A stretch of DNA of 39,098 nucleotides from Catajapyx aquilonaris (GCA_000934665.2 KZ538203.1:62001-101098); one strand, 5' to 3'; shown: positions 7,201 to 31,938, numbered from the stretch's first letter. Translations and numbers: made by a program. Notes: a model not told the origin generated them from the sequence alone.

Positions 7201-10200
7201 ATGAACTGTGAAAGTGCTGTTTTGCGATGAAAGCGATGATCAGAGTTTTGCTGCGTGTTAATGTTGGTATGACCCAAGTGATTGTTGTGTTGTAGATATT
7301 GTGTATTGCAAAAAGTAAGTTAATTCCTTATTCCCTTGTAGTATTACAGTTCAAACCCCCCCATGTTGCACATGGTTATGGTTTATTTTCCATAACTAGT
7401 GATCACTCCTTTAAGCCTGTGTCATTAATTCAATTGTGTTGGACCATCCGGATTCATCCTATCTTCATTGTTCCTGCAGGATATCGAAATATTGTGGTTG
7501 CAGAGAGCAGATAATTAGAGTTGGGTGGTCAGCATTATTCCTGTTATTTTTTAGCACATCCATATATTGCTGGTCAAGTATAGTGTATAAGCCCAGTTCT
7601 AATTACTGCTTGAGATTACTAAAGTTAACCATCCCTTGGCACTGAGGTCATTGTCTAGTCAGTGGTTTTGCGACGCGTCAATATTGCTTCTTCCGTGGAG
7701 CAAGTAATTTTGTCAGGTCTGGTGTAATTTCTTTGTGTCAACACTTTTAGGACATCAATAATATTAACATTATTACATGTGCAATCTTGAAGGAATCATG
7801 GTGTGGTAGCATTTAAAGGCAACTGCCCTTAAATGTTACCACATCATGATTCCTTCAAGATTGCACATGTAATACTGGATTTTTCGGTTTAATCAAATTC
7901 ATCAAGTTTTTGTATTTGAATATTGAGCCCTTGTGTACGTACTGTGTCATATTTAGAGCTGTACATGTTTTATGATTGCTGGCTTCTGAGGAGAAAATTT
8001 ATTGTCAGATATTGGCGCTGACCAGGTACCAGCATCGATGTTGTTAGCTTAGTAATCAATTTTGTTACAAACCATATTTTTTTCCCCTTCATTATAGTGC
8101 CTTGCTTCAATTGTTTACTTCTGAAAATATTCATTATGTGGTGGCTGAGCTGTTTTATAATAAGCTTAATTGAATGTTAAGTGGCATTACTGGACATCAT
8201 AGTAGACTGATCTAAACTCAATTTAAAGGCATTACTCTTATGTTGTGTAATACACAGCTGTCTGAGAAAGAGATTGTGAGATTTGCGTAATCAAAAGTAC
8301 AAAAAGAATTGAAAAGAATGATGCACTCATCATGCAGAAAATTATGAAGTGCAGAGAGTTATCCAGCTACTTGAGTTGCATCCCTTTTACAGATGGGGAT
8401 TAATGTGTCATTTCTTACATTGGGTTTGCATCAGAGAGAAAATTAACCAGCAGAAGCTAATTTTCAGATTGTAATATCATAGGAAAAGTATAACATGTGG
8501 GTGATGGCATGATGGGAGTTGCAGATGCAGTTTCTTCCACATTGATCTGCATAATTGGCTCTAGCAGTGCATAAAAAAGCTCTCTAAAAGCTATTGTAGC
8601 ATGAAAGAGAGGAGCATGTCATGTGAATTATCATCTTGAGCAGTCTAAATAAAATTCAGATGTTATTACTGGAGGTCCTTCAATGTATGTCAGTTGAGAC
8701 CTTCCGGAGGTGCTTCCCATGACTTGATAGGTGCTAAACGTGGATAGAGATCAATGCTTGTGAACTTGAGAAACAACCGTTTAAGAACATGTCAGATGTT
8801 TATCTAATGTGAAATAAGATTGGTCCTGGGAATATTTTCTTGAACATACATATACAATGCCCTTTTAGAGCCTTACATTCTGGCATGATTGTGTGGCTTG
8901 GATTTAAAAGTCATGGCAGTGCATGCTTTGAGGCACAAGTTTATTTTGCTAATTCACTGACGCATATTCCACCTTTCATGTACGATAAGTAGCATTACTG
9001 TAGATTAAAAACAAGAATAATGAAAAGGGGAAATAGTTGCTTATGTGTAAGCAGCTAATAATTCAATATCACCTTGTCCAGGCTGTTAGTAAACCAGTTC
9101 CAGTATGTTTAAAAAGTATGATTCAAAGAATTTCTCAGACGTCCAGAAGAATATAACCAAAAATAGGCCATTAAAATATATTAAGTTATCATTTCGAATG
9201 AATGATACAAATTGTAATGTACTGCATGACACAAAAGTCAGCTAAGATCCAGATTGCCTGTAATTCAGTATTTTATCCTGACTCAATTGTACCCAGAGTA
9301 AGAGAGCATCCTCTTTGCTGATTACATTCCATGTGCATGGATCCACTATGCACGTCACTTGTAGCAATGTTGCCTACTCGAATTATGAATGGACACACAA
9401 GTCTGCTGATTAGGATCTGAGGTAACTTTTGGGAGATCTGGTACTTTGTTATGGAGCAAGGAACATAATGCCTTAATAATAACATTACCATTAATAATAT
9501 CATGACGCATTTCAACGAAACCACCACATGAGGGAAAAATTAAACGAGAGGTTTACCAAAGAAGTATGGAGTAACGTGACACTGGCACAGACTATGAGCA
9601 AGTGCTTTTGCAGCAGATATGATATCTATAATGGGGAAAGCCTGTTAAAATACATAATGTAAATTAGTCTATCTTGNNNNNNNNNNNNNNNNGGGGGGGG
9701 GACTTTCTCAATAGTCTTTACAAATATGGTTGAACTATTCTAAACTACTTTGATCTGCATAGGGTTTCAAGTGTAGTGGAAGATATGCACCATCACATAC
9801 TAATGCTGATTTTTGTGGGAAAATTCTTAACAATGTTACGACCGAATAGTACTTTTGGAATGCAGTCATATGTTATGCAGTGGTTGTGTTGAGCAGTTTT
9901 CTGTCACTCCTCCTTCACCTAGAATGTCATCTGAGTGCTTACTGCCACACCATATAGATATCATATTGCAACTATACATTTTCAACTCGTGATGATAACT
10001 CAGAAAATTTGTCAGGATTTTCTGAAGTGTCACTGGAACCTTGGAGCTGCCATGTGTACAGTATTAATTCCGTGTCCAATGCACATTCCTAGCCCAGTCT
10101 CAGATATGTCTTAGGATCTGCAAATCAGGTTACTGTACCATTCCTTGTGGCCCTGTACTTACTGACGTGTGTGGTAATATACTGTGGACTAAGCTGCAGA

Positions 10201-22761: not shown

Positions 22762-23801
22762 TTATGCCTGTATCAAGGCTGCCAGGTGCTGACAAATGTC
22801 TTTAGCTGATGGCCTCTCATCTGGAACCTCACTAGTACAGCAGTAGAACAGCTCAATGACAGGCTTGTAGCTATCATCAAAAGAGTGGTCTGGAAGGGCT
22901 GGCCTTGTCCCAATCCTCTTCTCAAACTCTTGCTCCTCAACCTCCAGCCTCTCAGTGATTGACTCCTCAGTGGCCGATTCCCAACTCATATCATCATTGT
23001 TCACATGTGGTGGATTCAGCGACATCATCTCCCACAGGACCAACCCATACGAAAATATATCCGTCTTGTGAGTGACAACGCCATTTTCGCTCACCGCCTC
23101 CTTAGCTGACCAGCAACGAGTTCCAATGTAGATCTCAGTCGGATCACTCACAATACCCTTCTCATTGAGTTGCAGACTAACCCCAAAGTCACACAACTTG
23201 GCCGCCTCAAACTCGCCTGCAATCAGTATGTTAGCACTCTTGATATCACCATGCAGCAAGCGCTTCTCATCATGCAGGTAGCTAAGCGCCAACGCAACAT
23301 CATATGCCACTTTTAGGATGTATCCTGCCAGGAATGGCCCGCCATCCTCCTCATTGCGCTTCTCGACCAGATCACCCAGGGAAACATGCCCATGCTCCAT
23401 AGCGAGACAGGCATCACCTGATATGTTCTTCCCAAATGCCCGGAAGCCAATTATGTTTGGATGCTTGAGCTCCTTCAGAATTTCAGCCTCCAAGCGCAGA
23501 CGAGATGCAGCTGAGCGGCTGCACTGATACTTGGAGTTCACCTTCTTCAAAGCCCACGGGGATTTGTACTGGCAGGGGGAGCGGGGAGACCGCTCCATCA
23601 GGAACACATCCACACCTGTAAAAGTATACATGAAGGTAGAGTCCAGCTCATTGTTGCAGCAAATCGGGTCATACCAGTTCCATATCCTATTTTCTTCAGG
23701 AAAGGTGTTGGCGGCAGACGCATAATGGGCGTCGATGGAGGCTTGTCAGACACATCGCGACGTCGGTTGGTCGGTTCAGGGCTCTGGAACACATCCGCCA
23801 T
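22762..23801 (-). CDS. PBK: PBK/TOPK (PDZ-binding, lymphokine-activated killer T-cell-originated) mitotic kinase, about 326 aa. Exons 23801-23675 and 23615-22762
   Basis: A 59-nt GT-AG intron joins MADVFQSP...PPTPFLKKIGYGTG to VDVFLMERSPR...SPWALKK, the PBK-type N-lobe. Kinase motifs HGDIKSANIL, LCDFGVS, YIGT..W..KE and DIFSYGLVLWEM are present. Candidate polyA signals are TTTATT on + at 22635-22640 and 22737-22742. Confidence 0.93.
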
Positions 23802-24611: not shown

Positions 24612-27600
24612 ATGCTGCTTTTGTTTGCACTACTTGTCCCAGCGTCGTCCCAGCAGTTGACGGGAGGGATGCTGTACCCAAGAGCATCTGAGTCTAGAGA
24701 ACTTGTGTCCCTAGATGGAGTTTGGGACTTCAGGGCCAGTCCTGACAATGACCAATCCGAGGGTTTTAGGGAATCGTGGTTCAAAAAAAGATTGGCTCAG
24801 ACAGGTGAAGTTCAGCCTATGCCAGTGCCTTCTAGTTACAATGATGTGACCCAAAATGCCAGTCTGCGTGACTACATTGGTTGGGTGTGGTATGATCGAG
24901 AGTTCTACATTCCTGCTAGGTGGAAGCAAGATGGGAGGGTTGTCTTGCGCTTTGGAAGTGTTCATTACTACACCATGGTGGTAAGTGCTGGTGTATGCAG
25001 GGGTAGTTTAGATGTCAAATACCCCCTTGGTTTTCTTGCAGTGGGTGAATGGAATATCAGCAGTGAACCACAGTGGAGGCCACTTGCCTTTTGAGGCAGA
25101 TGTAACCAAACTTCTGCATGCGAATTGTAGCAACTTGGTCACAGTAGCTGTCAACAACACTCTCACCACCTACACCATACCCCAAGGAGAGACAATTACT
25201 CATCCGAACAGTTCAAGGTACAGTATCAGTAATAATTTTGAACTGCTGAAACCCTACATGCCTGACCGTGTTAATACGACTGAGAATCCTATGGCATTAA
25301 TTCCTCATTCCCTGTGCTTAATTTCCTGCAGATATCCGCCAGGTTTTCATGCGCAAGAATACAGCTTTGACTTTTTCAATTATGCTGGAATTCATCGTCC
25401 TGTGCACCTGTACACCACACCCAACACCTACATTGAAGATATTACTGTCACAACTGAAATTCTGGGCGAAACCGCAGGTAATTCTGAATCATTGAGCACA
25501 CTTACAGTTGGTATTGTTTTTGGCCAGGTGTTATTCATTATAGAGTGGATTACAAGTCTGAATCAGCAGAGCAGCAAGTTGTTTGTTATGTCGAGCTGTT
25601 CAACAAGAAACGAATCATGGTGGGAACTGCAAAAGGATGCAAGAGTTTGGTTAAGGTGGCAAATGCCACTTTTTGGTGGCCATTTCAGATGAGTGAAGAG
25701 CCAGGATATTTGTATACTTTGAAGGTAAATAATTAAATTGGGGATAAGAATCTTATTTCTTCAGGTGCTGGGAACAGGCTTGTATTGTTACATCAGGAGA
25801 AGAAAAGCCTCAGGTCATTGTGATTCCGTGTTTGAAATTTCTTGACATTAATCCAAGTTTCAGTATTTCCATCGACTTTATTTTTGCTTGATTGGGGCCA
25901 TGGTAAATTTTACTTATGTCATGACTTGCTCATGCTGTGTAATGCAGGATGCACATTTTCACATTTACTTGAACAAGGGTAAGCCATCAGTACACTTGGG
26001 GTGAAAACATAAATTTTCTTCGTCTTGCAGGTTAATGTGGTGAGCTCCAATGGCATGGATGTGTACAGACTGCCAGTTGGGATTCGGTATGTCAGTTGGA
26101 ATAAAACTGGGATTTACATCAATTCAAGGCCTTTCTATTTTCGTGGATTTGGACGCCATGAGGACTCAGATGTGAGTATTTTTCTTGGGTAATTGATGTT
26201 GATATATGATAACCTGGAGGGGCGACACGGTGGCAGAGTGGTTATCGCCACAGCCTACCATCTCTAAGGTCCCGAGTTCGATCCCCGGGTCGAGCAGAGG
26301 ATACTTATGTGGATAGAGTTTCAATGTGTTCTCTCCGTGTTCGAGTGGGTTTTCTCGGGGTTCTCCCTTTTCCTCCCGCAATCAAAATCCATCACGTGCA
26401 GGCAATGATTAAAGTCGGTTCACAAAAAGAAGATCCCCTAAGAGGCCCAAGGTCTATCACGGGGTATCCATTATTATATGATTGCTACTTGATCCAATTC
26501 TAATAATTTTTGAAAATCACATTACAGATCAGAGGCAAAGGATTAGACCTCCCATTAGTTATCAAAGACTACAACCTCATCAAGTGGGTAGGAGCTAATT
26601 CCTACCGTACCTCACACTACCCATACGCAGAAGAAATCATGGATCAGGCAGACCAGCAAGGGATAGTCATAATTGATGAGTGCCCTGCTGTTGACCTCAG
26701 GTAATGAACACCATAATAATGTTGAACAGGATTTGAGTCACAATGTCGCTGACCAAAACATAATCTTCCCATCCTTACAATGGGCATCATTACAGTCTGG
26801 ATTGAATTTTTTAGTGTCTTCGATCAAAAGATGCTGAAGAACCACGTCCATGTGATGACTGAGTTAATTCAAAGGGACAAGAATAGGCCAAGTGTGGTAA
26901 TGTGGTCATTAGCAAATGAACCTAGGTCATCTAAAAAGGAGGCCAAGGATTATTTCAGGTAAAATCAGTATCAGCAATCACTGCCTAGCACAACCACTAA
27001 CAAGCACTTCTCACTAGTAACCTGACTTCTGTGGTGAGGAGTTTAGATCACACCAGAATTGTTTCACTGGTCATCAATGCTGATGTTTCTACTGATCAAG
27101 CAGTAGGTTGCTGCATGTTTTTAAATTTATTTTTTAATGTCCGTATTGCTTGCGCTAGGCATACTCCACCCTGCATGATCTGTGTTTAATGGGCTGTCTT
27201 CCTGTAGTCAGCTCGTTTCATATGTACACCAACTGGATTCAGGTCGTCCTGTGACTGCTGCACTGTCTGGTGGTGTTAGTTCTGACAATGCTGTATGTAC
27301 TGCATGTGCACTTCTCTGAAATGAATTAGTGTTGAACAAAGCTTCATAATGGTGTGGAACAAACAAATGTCTTTTTTTTTTCCAGGCAGCCTTTGTTGAC
27401 ATAATATGTGTGAATAGGTACTTTTCATGGTACAGTGACACAGGCCATCTGGAAGTAGTAAGGAGGCAGGTTGTCAGTGAATATACTGAATGGCATGAAA
27501 AGCATGGAAAACTTGTCATGATCTCAGAATATGGAGCTGACACCCTAGCTGGGATGCACATGGTGAGTTGGGTATTTATTTTTATTATCTTCACGAGTAA

Positions 27601-28053
27601 TAATTCTATGTATTTGTATTTTAGGACCCACCATTTGTTTGGACTGAGGACTATCAGGTGGCAATGATGTCAGAGTATTTCCAAGCATTTGATGAGCTGC
27701 GTCATGCAGGATTTTTTGTTGGGGAGATGATCTGGAATTTTGCGGACTTTGCTACAGCTCAAGGTAATTTAATTTTGATACAAATTTATTCAGTTCATAT
27801 TATTTCTTTTGTGCACTTATTAATTTTTTGTTATTTTTATTTCCAATTTTTCCTCCCTGTTTCTTGCTCTCATTTATTATTTTTGAAAGCTGTTACACGT
27901 GTAGTGGGAAACAAAAAGGGTATATTTACAAGGCAACGGCAGCCCAAAGCTTCGGCTCATTTCTTACGAGCTCGGTATCACCAGCTGGCTGAAGAGATAG
28001 ATGGGTTTAAGGACCTGAAATACCGCAGCAGAGTTTATTGCCCCAGAGTGTAA
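24612..28053 (+). CDS. GUSB: Beta-glucuronidase (GH2) paralog 1, about 636 aa. Exons 24612-24980, 25042-25217, 25332-25477, 25528-25724, 26031-26171, 26528-26700, 26815-26958, [27018-27102 or 27208-27292], 27386-27562, 27625-27763, 27890-28053
   Basis: Signal peptide, then [60 protein letters not shown], acid/base WSLANEP, NRYFSWY, nucleophile SEYGAD, WNFADF and [14 protein letters not shown]. With one copy of exon 8 the exons sum to 1911 nt. AATAAA at 28088-28093. Confidence 0.96.
26219..26475 (+). mobile_element. tRNA-derived SINE with V-domain-like core, in glucuronidase 1 intron 5
   Basis: Pol III A box TGGCAGAGTGG (26231-26241) and B box GTTCGATCC (26276-26284), followed by ...GTGTTCTCTCCGTGTTCGAGTGGGTTTTCTCGGGGTTCTCCCTTTTCCTCCC, which resembles the V-SINE central domain. 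The 3' end is approximate. Confidence 0.75.
27018..27102 (+). CDS. GUSB: Glucuronidase 1 alternative exon 8a: (S)[28 protein letters not shown]
   Basis: 85 nt, acceptor cttctcactag, donor gtaggt, phase 2/0. Homologous to the GH2 segment ...LDPSRPVTFV...D. Confidence 0.85.
27208..27292 (+). CDS. GUSB: Glucuronidase 1 alternative exon 8b: (S)[28 protein letters not shown]
   Basis: 85 nt, acceptor gtcttcctgtag, donor gtatgt, same phase as 8a, contains LD..RPVT. Confidence 0.88.
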
Positions 28054-28744
28054 TCTAAAGTTTGATATGTTATCAAACAAATGTATGAATAAATGTTTGG
28101 GACTACTGATTGCAACTGATTCAAACAAATGTGACCTCCACTCCTAGTAGTCGGTATCTGCAAAATCATATGGCGACAGAGCTTCAAAAAAATGCAAGTA
28201 TTTCATTTAATACAAAGGCAGGATTTCATGACACTTGCTTTTATGAGTGAGGCACAATCATAATTAACATTCGCGCCTGTTCGCGCACTCTAACATTATC
28301 AGCAATGTCTGAATTCTTTAAATGCTAGTGCACTTGTGCCCATGTTTGTTTTGCCATTAAGTAAAGTAGTGAATTAATTAAATCTCTGTTTTCTAGAATG
28401 CATGCTTAACTTGATCTTGATGACCTTTGCTATTGGTATGATACCAGTCCAAGTCAGTGCTCAGGTAAAGGTATACTGCCATTAATGTGTCAGTATCTGC
28501 CTGTCAATCTGTGTTACAGTTGTTGATGTATGGTGTCATTGACAAGAGAAAAAAAAAAGAGCCATGCATCACTGTGGTAAATAGCCTGACCTTCATCCGA
28601 AAGGGGAAGTTGTCATTTGCCATGCAATCATTGTCCTGCAGACCCGGAGAGAAAAAAAGGAGTCGCAGAGAAGGTTGTGTTATCTTTCTGATAGGACATC
28701 AGAACTTGATAAAATACATGGAAGTGTCAGCAGTTCATCTCAAG

Positions 28745-31700
28745 ATGTTGTGGTTAACACTTCTGCTGCTGGTTGCGTCTTGCAGTGCAGAACTGACTGG
28801 TGGGATACTGTACCCAAGGGAATCTGAGTCTAGGGAGGTCCGCTCTTTGGATGGAATATGGGATTTCAGACTGGCAGACAGGCAGCATCCACAGGTTGGA
28901 TTCAGGGAGAAGTGGTACAAACAGAGGCTGGCTGAGGTGAGATAGACTTTTAGGAATTTGGTTGGAAGAGATGGAAATGTCTGTTTGTTTGTTTGTAGAC
29001 TGGTCCAGTGCAGGGCATGCCAGTGCCTAGCAGTTACAACGATGTGACACAAGATGCAAGCATCCGAGACCACATTGGCTGGGCTTGGTATGATAGAGAA
29101 TTTTTTGTGCCACAGCGATGGTCTCAGGACAAGCAGAGAGTATTCTTACGTTTTGGAAGTGCCCACTACAATACTGAAGTAGTAAGTAGAGCACAATGCA
29201 ATATTCATATTATTTGACAATATTTACCTCAAATATTTCCTGCAGTGGGTCAACTCAGTGTCAGCTGTGAATCACACAGGCGGACACCTCCCATTTGTGG
29301 CGGAAGTGACGAAGCTGCTTAACTATGGTTCAAACAACAGAATTACTGTGGCCATCAACAATACACTAACACCGCACACAGTGCCTCAAGGTCATATTGT
29401 GCATGAGAGCAACACAAAACGGTATGGAAAATTTTATTTTAAAAATGTAATCACAGCTATGTGTGGCTAATTATTTTGGAATTCACTTTGTTGAAGGTAT
29501 CCACCAGGATATTTTGTACAAACGCTGAACTTTGACTTCTTCAACTATGCTGGAATCCACCGACCTGTCTACCTGTACACTACACCTGAGAATTATATTG
29601 ATGACATAACTGTCACCACAGACATTCTCAATGCAACCACAGCTGTGATCAACTACCATATGTCAGTAAAAGGTCCTGGAAGAAATTCTGTTCACCAACC
29701 AGGCTGCCAGGTGACCATCTATGATCGAGACATGAGATTAGTTGCAGAGAGCAATTTAGCACCAGAAGGTAAGATAGTGGTCACCAATGCTCATTTCTGG
29801 TGGCCTTATCAAATGCATCATGAGCCTGCCTACCTCTACACGATGGAAGTAAGAATCATGGTGTTATAAATCGCAACATTAAATTTTGACTTACAACATT
29901 TGTTTCAGTTTCGTGTGATTACCTCAGTTACTAGTGATGTCTACCGGATGCCAGTTGGCATTAGAACAGTAAGCTGGACATCAACTGAATTCTTCATAAA
30001 TGGGCAACCATTTTACTTCAGAGGATTTGGACGTCATGAGGATTCTGATGTAAGTTTTTGTGAAACAGCTACTTCATTATGAAATGTTGCGCAACACTTT
30101 TCCGGTTATTGTCAACACATTATTCGAGGACATTGTTGACTGTGAAGAGTTGTCTGGGAGTCGGTGCGCCGCATCACCAAAAAGTGGTTCCTGGAGGGCC
30201 TGGAGAGGTTAACTAGTACCAGTGCCAGTGCTTTCGGCTCCAGGAGGATTCTATATACAATATGTGCCTATTTTTCGACCTGCACGGGGGCTGTGTCTGT
30301 GGCAAAAAACAAACTGTCAAATCATTTTGGTACCGTCCTCGTATTAGGAACACACTGGGGCCTGCAAATTGGCTTATACCAAAGGAAGGAAACACAGAAG
30401 ATATAATTATGTATTTTGCAGATGTTCCTGTAGTGGAACATGGGTTACTTTTTTAAATGCCTTATGTGAGTCATTTTTCCGCAGATTCGGGGTAAAGGTG
30501 TGGATAATGCGTTGCTAATTAAGGACTACAATTTGCTGAAATGGATTGGTGCTAACTCCTATCGAACTTCACATTACCCATATGCAGAAGAGATTTTAGA
30601 TCAGGCTGATAAACAAGGGATTGTCATTATCAATGAAAGTCCTGCCATTGGTCTGGAGTATGTTGTGATGACTGAATCCATAGGGATATCACAAAATAAA
30701 ATGCTACTTTCTTTTGCAGTGGATTTGATGACCTTCTATTGAAACAACACAAGCGAGTGATGGCAGAGTTTGTGCGGAGGGACAAGAACAGGCCTAGTGT
30801 TGTCATGTGGTCTATTGGAAATGAGCCGCAATCACAGAAGAATGCATCAGGACCTTATTTCAAGTAGGACAATAAGAAAGCTTTTTTCTCCCTTACTCAA
30901 TATTCAGAGTTCATCATTGGCACCATCTGTTGTGCTCTAGTCACGCCTTTTCAAAAATGTTATGCCAGGGCGGAAGGGAGTGACAATTCATACACTCTTG
31001 ACCTGTGTTTATTTTTAACTAGAAATCTATACAGTATATTTGCCCAGCATGGCCAATTTTTCCCTAGGGATAGAAACAGTGCGCCATGCAAAGTAGCACT
31101 GAGTAACACTTATTACTACTCATTCCTATCCTTGTTAGGTCTGTGGTTGAATACACCAAGACACTTGACACAACACGACCTGTGACTCTTGTCATCAGTG
31201 CGGGATACCAAGTGGACCATGGTGTAAGCTGCATGAGGGTCCTTTCTGGTAGAATTTTCAATGTAAATTTACAACATTTCAGGCACAATATATGGATGTA
31301 GTTAGCATCAACCGTTATTTCTCATGGTATTCTGACACAGGCCATTTAGAAGTCATACAGCCCCAAACGTTGGATGAAGTTCACCAGTGGCATCATAAGT
31401 TTGGCAAGCCTGTCATTATGACAGAATATGGAGCTGGTACAGTGGCTGGAATGCATATGGTAATGAAGACCTAGTTGATTTTGATATCCAATGTTAGCTT
31501 GCCTGTCTGTTGTTAGGACCCGCCGTTTGTGTGGACGGAAGATTACGAAGTGGCACTGCTTCTGGAGAACTTCAAGGCATTTGATGTGCTGCGACACAAC
31601 TCATCATCTGGATTCATTGGGGAGATGATTTGGAATTTTGCAGATTTTGCAGTGCCGCAAGGTTTGTTGTTATCAGGAGGTTGGAAGGAGGGAGTAGAGT

Positions 31701-31938
31701 TTATTTTTTCTCAAAGGATTTTATAATTCTGCTATCTGTAAAGTTCTGAACTTAATTCTTTTGTCACTCCCATGTAACAGAGTACATTCGTCCATGGGGT
31801 TGCATGAAAGGTGTGTTCACACGGCAGAGGCAACCCAAAGCTGCTGCCCATGTTGTGCGCTGGCGATACTGGAGTGTTGCTAACGAGACTCTTGGAAGTG
31901 GATTCCCAGCTGACGTTAGAATGTGGGGTTACTTTTAG
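28745..31938 (+). CDS. GUSB: Beta-glucuronidase-like (GH2) paralog 2, about 641 aa. Exons 28745-28936, 28999-29181, 29246-29421, 29497-29848, 29909-30049, 30485-30657, 30720-30863, 31139-31223, 31283-31459, 31517-31661, 31781-31938
   Basis: Signal peptide [15 protein letters not shown] and the same GH2 motifs as paralog 1 (WSIGNEP, NRYFSWY, TEYGAG, WNFADF). The exons sum to 1926 nt in one frame. The C-terminal motif reads [17 protein letters not shown]. Confidence 0.95.

Follow-up and report, generated by a model that had tools for sequence, protein, structure and literature searches.

Organization of the locus

The sequence analyzed here is a stretch of 39,098 nt from Catajapyx aquilonaris (GCA_000934665.2 KZ538203.1:62001-101098), in the following called the window, and all coordinates count from its start. 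It contains two glycoside hydrolase family 2 (GH2) beta-glucuronidase genes in tandem, both on the plus strand. The first of them, GUSB paralog 1 (24612..28060), harbors two neighboring 85-nt exons, 8A and 8B (A and B for short), and we consider it likely that these arose by tandem duplication and that both are used as a mutually exclusive pair. Paralog 1 has 11 exon positions, codes for 636 amino acids with either A or B and carries the carboxylate-recognition motif GNKKG. GUSB paralog 2 (28745..31938) consists of 11 exons coding for 641 amino acids, reads GCMKG at the place of GNKKG and has a single copy of the exon in question, the 85-nt exon C (31139..31223, plus strand; joints 30863>31139 and 31223>31283), which is the counterpart of A and B. 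The two paralogs are 60% identical and appear as sisters in the GUSB tree (support 90, not starred), loosely placed amid pancrustacean sequences.

The exon models were derived from the joints of spliced RNA contigs together with open reading frames (ORFs), the model of paralog 2 only partly from joints. The RNA data came from one small public run, X1, used in the form of contigs (0.40 of words matched; neither the kind of data nor the tissue is recorded). At least 15 GT..AG joints of the X1 contigs could be placed on the window, which indicates that the contigs were derived from spliced RNA. The introns of both paralogs are of the GT..AG type throughout.

The domains and motifs identify paralog 1 as a GH2 beta-glucuronidase. 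Pfam profiles detected the sugar-binding domain GH2_N (PF02837) on exon 1 with 36.7 bits and the TIM barrel domain GH2_C (PF02836) on exons 6, 7, 9 and 10 with 31-73 bits, and homologs of paralog 1 carry PF02837, PF00703 and PF02836. The ORFs of A and B alone gave no GH2 match in Pfam, because they are too short; a zinc-ribbon match on an alternative-exon ORF was below the threshold, fell on intronic residues and was disregarded. The spliced translation of paralog 1 contains both the NEP and the EYG motif, whose columns are invariant in an alignment of 44 sequences (N447, E448 and E537-Y538 in shrimp numbering). We take the Glu of NEP to be the catalytic acid/base and the Glu of EYG to be the nucleophile.

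A tandem pair of 85-nt exons

The pair lies between two constitutive exons on the plus strand. Exon 7 (26815..26958) carries the NEP motif, corresponds to positions 103-140 of the Pfam GH2_C profile and at its end contributes two bases to a split codon; its joints in run X1 are 26698>26813 and 26956>27016, both with a cut of +2. It is followed by exon 8A (27018..27102, plus strand), in which RIVS replaces the family motif RPVT, by the A-B intron of 105 nt (27103..27207, plus strand) and by exon 8B (27208..27292, plus strand), which has kept the canonical RPVT. Exon 9 (27386..27562), which comes after either A or B, is supported by RNA joints and corresponds to positions 166-221 of the GH2_C profile. 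A and B are 85 nt long each, are preceded by AG and followed by GT, and share one phase, in which the split codon is completed by one base and 28 whole codons follow; no other frame is open in either of them.

This arrangement has direct consequences for the reading frame. A alone or B alone results in a protein of 636 amino acids, and the A- and B-isoforms differ at 17 residues. Using A and B together leads to a first stop within exon B after 500 residues, and without either of them translation ends after 454 residues, at a stop located 6 codons into exon 9. Cells generally remove mRNAs with early stops by nonsense-mediated decay (NMD). As the stops of both forms are located well upstream of the last exon junction, NMD of those mRNAs is expected.

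The three exon copies are homologous and strongly diverged. At the amino-acid level the identities are 12/29 between A and B, 10/29 between A and C and 11/29 between B and C, and the corresponding nucleotide identities over the 85 positions are 36, 35 and 40. A reading made earlier from the sequence alone had described two open 85-nt exons of the same phase with intact AG and GT sites, related to the single exon at 31139-31223 yet far apart in sequence, of which only one-of-two inclusion is productive; our analysis recovers each of these points. One detail has to be corrected, since the split codon preceding exon C had been given as Arg and actually reads Lys.

RNA evidence for exon usage

Direct evidence for splicing at the pair comes from the second contig record of run X1 (1248 nt, depth 13.9), which shows 0 other letters in the listed pieces when compared with the window. 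It joins 26958>27018 (equal to 26956>27016 with a cut of +2) and 27102>27386, and therefore exon A was used and exon B was skipped in this transcript. A joint from A to B or a joint 26958>27386 skipping both exons is not present among the 15 listed of 19 X1 joints. The sequence-only reading had proposed junction reads as a check: the two joints expected for the A form were seen exactly, whereas those of the B form are not among the 15 joints listed.

Homology and age of the exon copies

To search for the segment in the window, a profile of its 29 residues was built from 95 homologs, excluding the window sequences, and run against 1757 six-frame ORFs of the window. Exon C scored 43.7 bits, B 31.5 bits and A 22.9 bits, and the next ORF reached 7.8 bits. 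These exactly three hits indicate three exon copies and no more; no further copy or relic scoring above 7.8 bits was found among the 1757 ORFs, also not within the 275-nt intron before exon C. Judged from these sequences, the resemblance between A and B exceeds chance.

The 30 bases flanking A and B on either side are identical at 6/30 and 9/30 positions, which equals random identity, and the duplication must therefore be old. Matches between A and B are distributed over codon positions 1, 2 and 3 with 11, 15 and 9 of 28, the third position matching least. The other exon pairs repeat this pattern, as expected under coding constraint. In the RPVT columns of 97 homologs Pro is found in 90/97 and Thr in 89/97 sequences, and exon B keeps both residues. 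Exon B fits the family profile better than the expressed exon A, with 31.5 compared to 22.9 bits. That the copy without RNA evidence is the more canonical one is hard to square with a long-dead exon, and exon B looks as if it has been conserved for a long time.

The exchanged segment and loop 5

An AlphaFold model of isoform X1 of the shrimp homolog (44-sequence alignment; mean predicted local distance difference test score 88.5) shows a helix at residues 456-470, a strand at 476-480 and a loop at 481-489. The alternative segment (461-489) therefore covers the end of the helix, the strand and the loop, in agreement with the earlier assignment of the segment to a helix, the RPVT strand and the loop behind it. 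The proposal that this loop borders the active site also holds, as the loop maps to loop 5 of the aglycone-binding site known from bacterial beta-glucuronidase (GUS). If the Arg of RPVT is taken as position 1, Y446-L447-M448 of Clostridium perfringens GUS correspond to positions 8-10 in the alignment (homolog P0100 versus chain 4JKM_A, P0100 aligning gap-free with both window isoforms). In human GUSB (1BHG) position 8 from the same Arg is an Asn at chain index 464, which we take to be Asn484, assuming that the NEP Glu is residue 451. A literature search for Asn484 or N484 returned nothing relevant.

According to PMC6219552, the aglycone-binding site is formed by loops 3, 5 and 6, of which loops 3 and 5 are variable and explain the substrate preference. 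The loop-5 residues named there are V446 and M447 for Escherichia coli GUS, and for C. perfringens GUS Y446 and L447. Exchanging YLM 446-448 for the three residues of another species is reported to have reduced the activity on three substrates and increased that on glycyrrhizin (PMC6219552).

In the window the loop-5 triplet, at segment positions 21-23, reads N-A-D in A, S-G-G in B and S-A-G in C. For each of five taxa, namely the window, Penaeus monodon, Homarus americanus, Daphnia pulex and Haliotis asinina, its own variants were set against one another. Variants differ at segment positions 9, 21, 22, 23 and 26 in all five taxa, and three of these positions make up the loop-5 triplet. In none of the five do variants differ at the conserved core residues Asp, Arg and Val. 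At position 21 one variant per taxon has Asn and the rest have Ser or Ala. Of 97 homologs, 25 have N at this position, 24 have S and 18 have A. By a rough estimate, not a formal test, chance alone would give every pair a single Asn in four independent lineages in a few percent of cases. The concentration of the variant differences on loop 5 in all five taxa indicates selection on the protein. By analogy with the bacterial enzymes, the chances that the A- and B-isoforms differ in aglycone preference seem about evenly balanced.

Alternative segments in other species

To look for comparable switches, 20 homolog clusters were surveyed by comparing isoform pairs of the same length. In 4 of the 20 clusters RefSeq lists same-length isoforms that differ solely in the 28 residues homologous to A and B. 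These are the isoforms X1/X2/X3 of P. monodon, X1/X2/X3 of P. indicus and X1/X2 of P. japonicus (residues 461-488 of 646), X1/X2 and X3/X4 of H. americanus (residues 488-515), X3/X4 of D. pulex (residues 482-509), and X1/X3 of H. asinina together with X1/X2 of H. rufescens (residues 461-478 of 625, 6 differences). Same-length pairs of Mytilus, barnacles and a tick were also considered; they differ at scattered single residues instead of in this segment and were rejected. For Schistocerca, Cryptotermes, Neocloeon, Anabrus, Anastrepha, Daktulosphaira, Priapulus, Ptychodera and a paralog of Haliotis rubra the listed isoforms are unequal in length or no pair is listed, and the segment was not compared.

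The sequence-only reading knew of no such cassette in an animal GUSB, and in this respect it has been overtaken by the RefSeq models of seven species, which already contain one; the pair in the window would add another case. Our literature search found no paper on an exon switch in any beta-glucuronidase. The variant types of shrimp and lobster match each other at 16-21 of 29 residues, and both Daphnia types are found again in D. magna or D. carinata and in D. pulex or D. pulicaria. As the Haliotis variants are only 6 differences apart, their duplication looks younger or homogenized, which suggests that the abalone pair represents at least one separate or homogenized duplication.

Two of these genes vary at a second site. 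In H. americanus (P0008, P0135, P0132, P0134, P0133) two loop-5 exon variants occur with two last exons (GNKKG/GACMKG), all four combinations being annotated, and a GenBank model of the same lobster gene also includes a portion of what appears to be a third loop-5 exon. In H. asinina (P0218/P0219, P0215/P0214) a second alternative region close to the C-terminus, at residues 588-623 with 3 differences, is freely combined with the loop-5 variants and is possibly a duplicated last exon. Alternative last exons were not found in the window, where each paralog has one last exon only.

Alternative explanations

Several observations weigh against the use of both exons or against the functional meaning we attach to it. 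The most important one is that no X1 contig covers exon B. Furthermore, the bins around exon B have depths of 4.52 and 6.13, and the second contig record alone yields these values (13.9 x 87/267 and 13.9 x 118/267). X1 is a single run and contigs drop rare variants, and for this reason the lack of cover is not proof that B is silent, yet it leaves the most serious gap in our argument. The expressed exon A is also the odd one within the family, with Ile at the Pro position of RPVT (0/97 homologs) and Ser at the Thr position (2/97). The conservation of exon B could be judged on distant homologs only, as the nearest proteins are 58-69% identical for the single exons 1 and 9 (52-58% over the full length). 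The isoforms of the other species are database models. A and B match the variants elsewhere at 6-13 of 29 residues without a clear orthology to any of them, and the parallel may therefore be due to convergence; the evidence is compatible with a common ancestry of the switch as well as with its repeated origin. Finally, the functional effect attributed to loop 5 is known from bacterial enzymes.

The strongest competitor is that exon B is an unused relic, which only looks intact next to an exon A that is always the one to be spliced. In its favor, the only RNA contig over the pair uses A and joins across B. An open frame of 28 codons is also weak evidence for function, as about a quarter of random frames would be open over that length (an estimate that was not computed). 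However, an abandoned exon would hardly score above its expressed neighbor against the profile of the 95 homologs, and RPVT and both splice sites of B have remained while its flanks have decayed to random identity. Moreover, homologous exon pairs or triplets have been retained as alternative isoforms in four other lineages. We therefore regard the relic as unlikely. A variant of this explanation, in which the use of exon B was lost very recently, is conceivable.

A second possibility is that the pair mainly serves dosage control: under regulation, both exons would be taken up or both left out, the resulting frame-shifted transcripts would be degraded and the isoform diversity would be incidental. 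The stops in exon B and exon 9 would provide for this, and the 105-nt intron physically permits the joining of A to B. On the other hand, neither kind of joint occurs among the listed X1 joints, and the loop-5-centered differences in five of five taxa indicate selection on the protein. In our view this explanation is very improbable. That the duplication is an assembly artefact or consists of alleles collapsed side by side has a negligible probability, because the gaps marked by four short N runs elsewhere in the window are opposed by copies that match at only 36 of 85 bases between unrelated flanks, and by RNA contigs that agree with the window in the listed pieces of the gene and splice exactly at the borders of A.

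Possible mechanism of exon choice

If A and B are indeed a mutually exclusive pair, the following scenario is the most probable one. In a GH2 beta-glucuronidase gene of the lysosomal type, a single exon would have been duplicated in tandem long ago, giving rise to 8A and 8B. An mRNA taking exactly one of them would be translated into a 636-residue enzyme, and mRNAs with both or neither would be frame-shifted, run into an early stop and presumably be degraded by NMD. Within the exchanged 29 residues, a barrel helix ends and is followed by the RPVT strand and by loop 5, which forms part of the lining of the aglycone pocket. With N-A-D in one form and S-G-G in the other, the gene would provide two enzymes with one catalytic machinery and differently shaped aglycone pockets, which would probably differ in their substrate preference.

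It is less obvious how the choice between the two exons would be made. The A-B intron of 105 nt is longer than the shortest introns of the gene (50-62 nt), and steric exclusion is therefore unlikely. A candidate for an intron-intron pairing that would loop out A is an inverted repeat of 18 nt with 83% complementarity between an upstream arm at 26982..26999 and a downstream arm at 27144..27161 inside the A-B intron (both on the plus strand). The duplex energy of -30.2 compares with a shuffle mean of -23.7 (z -1.65), and 4.7% of 300 shuffles were equally low, so that we consider this pairing a weak lead only. For the other intron pairs RNA pairing was no better than in shuffles. From what is visible in the sequence, the frameshift followed by decay appears to be the sole safeguard of exclusivity.

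On a broader scale, invertebrate GUSB genes might share a conserved or recurrent loop-5 splicing module, with an Asn form and a Ser/Ala form in each lineage. The lobster would add its switch between GNKKG and GACMKG in the last exon, resulting in a combinatorial set of glycosidases with varied aglycone and perhaps also sugar-acid specificity. In the animal of the window this repertoire would then be split between the tandem paralogs and the A/B pair, both exons being used in different tissues or under different conditions. We put this wider scenario forward tentatively and lean slightly against it.

Further features of the window

The two paralogs also differ in the Asn-x-Lys carboxylate motif, which is present in paralog 1 (GNKKG) and lacks its Asn in paralog 2 (GCMKG). 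The difference is located at 31781-31938 versus 27890-28060, and the Cys-Met-Lys form also occurs in proteins of lobster, shrimp and krill. In PMC6219552 the equivalent Asn and Lys are listed as residues that bind the sugar. Due to the missing Asn, paralog 2 may prefer another sugar acid.

On the same strand, only about 685 bases (28061-28744) lie between the stop codon of paralog 1 and the point where translation of paralog 2 starts, a distance short enough to make read-through or chimeric transcripts conceivable; the depth of run X1 across this interval is almost nil (0-0.9). Intron 5 of paralog 1 contains at 26172-26527 what looks like a high-copy repeat, with an X1 word depth of 467.7 in the bin 26169-26435 and many X1 contigs that fit partly and have loose ends. 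A motif resembling the T-arm of a tRNA is found at 26268-26288, where ARAGORN predicts no tRNA gene, and the repeat is probably a tRNA-derived short interspersed nuclear element. Just upstream of paralog 1 an intron-less ORF of 327 amino acids on the minus strand (22765-23745) codes for a PBK/TOPK-like protein kinase, whose top matches are proteins of malacostracan crustaceans with 50-56% identity. An ORF fragment at 1842-2153 resembles the SNARE region of syntaxin, judged by eye from the translation. The four N runs, with a total of 27 bases, are located at 9677, 14557, 34671 and 36719 and represent assembly gaps, all of them outside the glucuronidase genes.

Significance

Long-lived mutually exclusive exons usually mark a spot where a protein needs two versions. 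Here the marked spot would be loop 5 in the active site of a glycosidase, which work on bacteria points to as a determinant of the glucuronides that the enzyme takes. Provided that both isoforms are produced, splicing and not gene duplication would be the means by which crustaceans and abalone adjust the substrate range of a lysosomal or digestive enzyme. This also bears on enzyme engineering, as mollusc beta-glucuronidases are used to hydrolyze drug glucuronides. For annotation we recommend that the exon-B form be modeled as well and that B not be dropped as intron.

Comparison with known systems

Classic cases of mutually exclusive exons are exons 9 and 10 of PKM and the exons of insect Mhc. 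With mutually exclusive exons in general the pair in the window shares adjacency, homology, equal length and phase, and a frame that needs one of the two. It departs from them in that the use of B is something we infer, that the search of the introns for selector or docking RNA pairing gave nothing convincing and that the intron is too long for steric exclusion. For exon pairs of this kind originating from tandem duplication, PMC3228551 gives as criteria that the exons are homologous, agree in length and phase and have conserved splice sites.

The closest parallels are the GUSB-like RefSeq isoforms of Penaeus, Homarus, Daphnia and Haliotis. Like the predicted isoforms of the window they are of the same length and differ only in the segment homologous to A and B, with Asn versus Ser or Ala at the first position of loop 5. 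They depart from the window in that Penaeus has three variants, the Haliotis variants are only 6 residues apart, and in Homarus the loop-5 switch is combined with two alternative last exons, which the window does not have. Among solved structures the shrimp homolog matches human lysosomal GUSB (1BHG, 3HN3) best, with E 1.9e-201; no gap interrupts the segment in this alignment, and the Asn-type variants share the Asn of the human enzyme. We know of no exon duplication of this kind in human GUSB.

A functional counterpart is offered by the engineering of loop 5 in C. perfringens GUS, where the replacement of residues 446-448 shifted the substrate preference (PMC6219552); in our alignment these residues correspond to the triplet differing between A and B. 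Those enzymes are bacterial, have a long loop 3 and were changed by mutation in the laboratory, whereas in the window a natural swap by splicing would exchange loop 5 along with the helix end and the strand.

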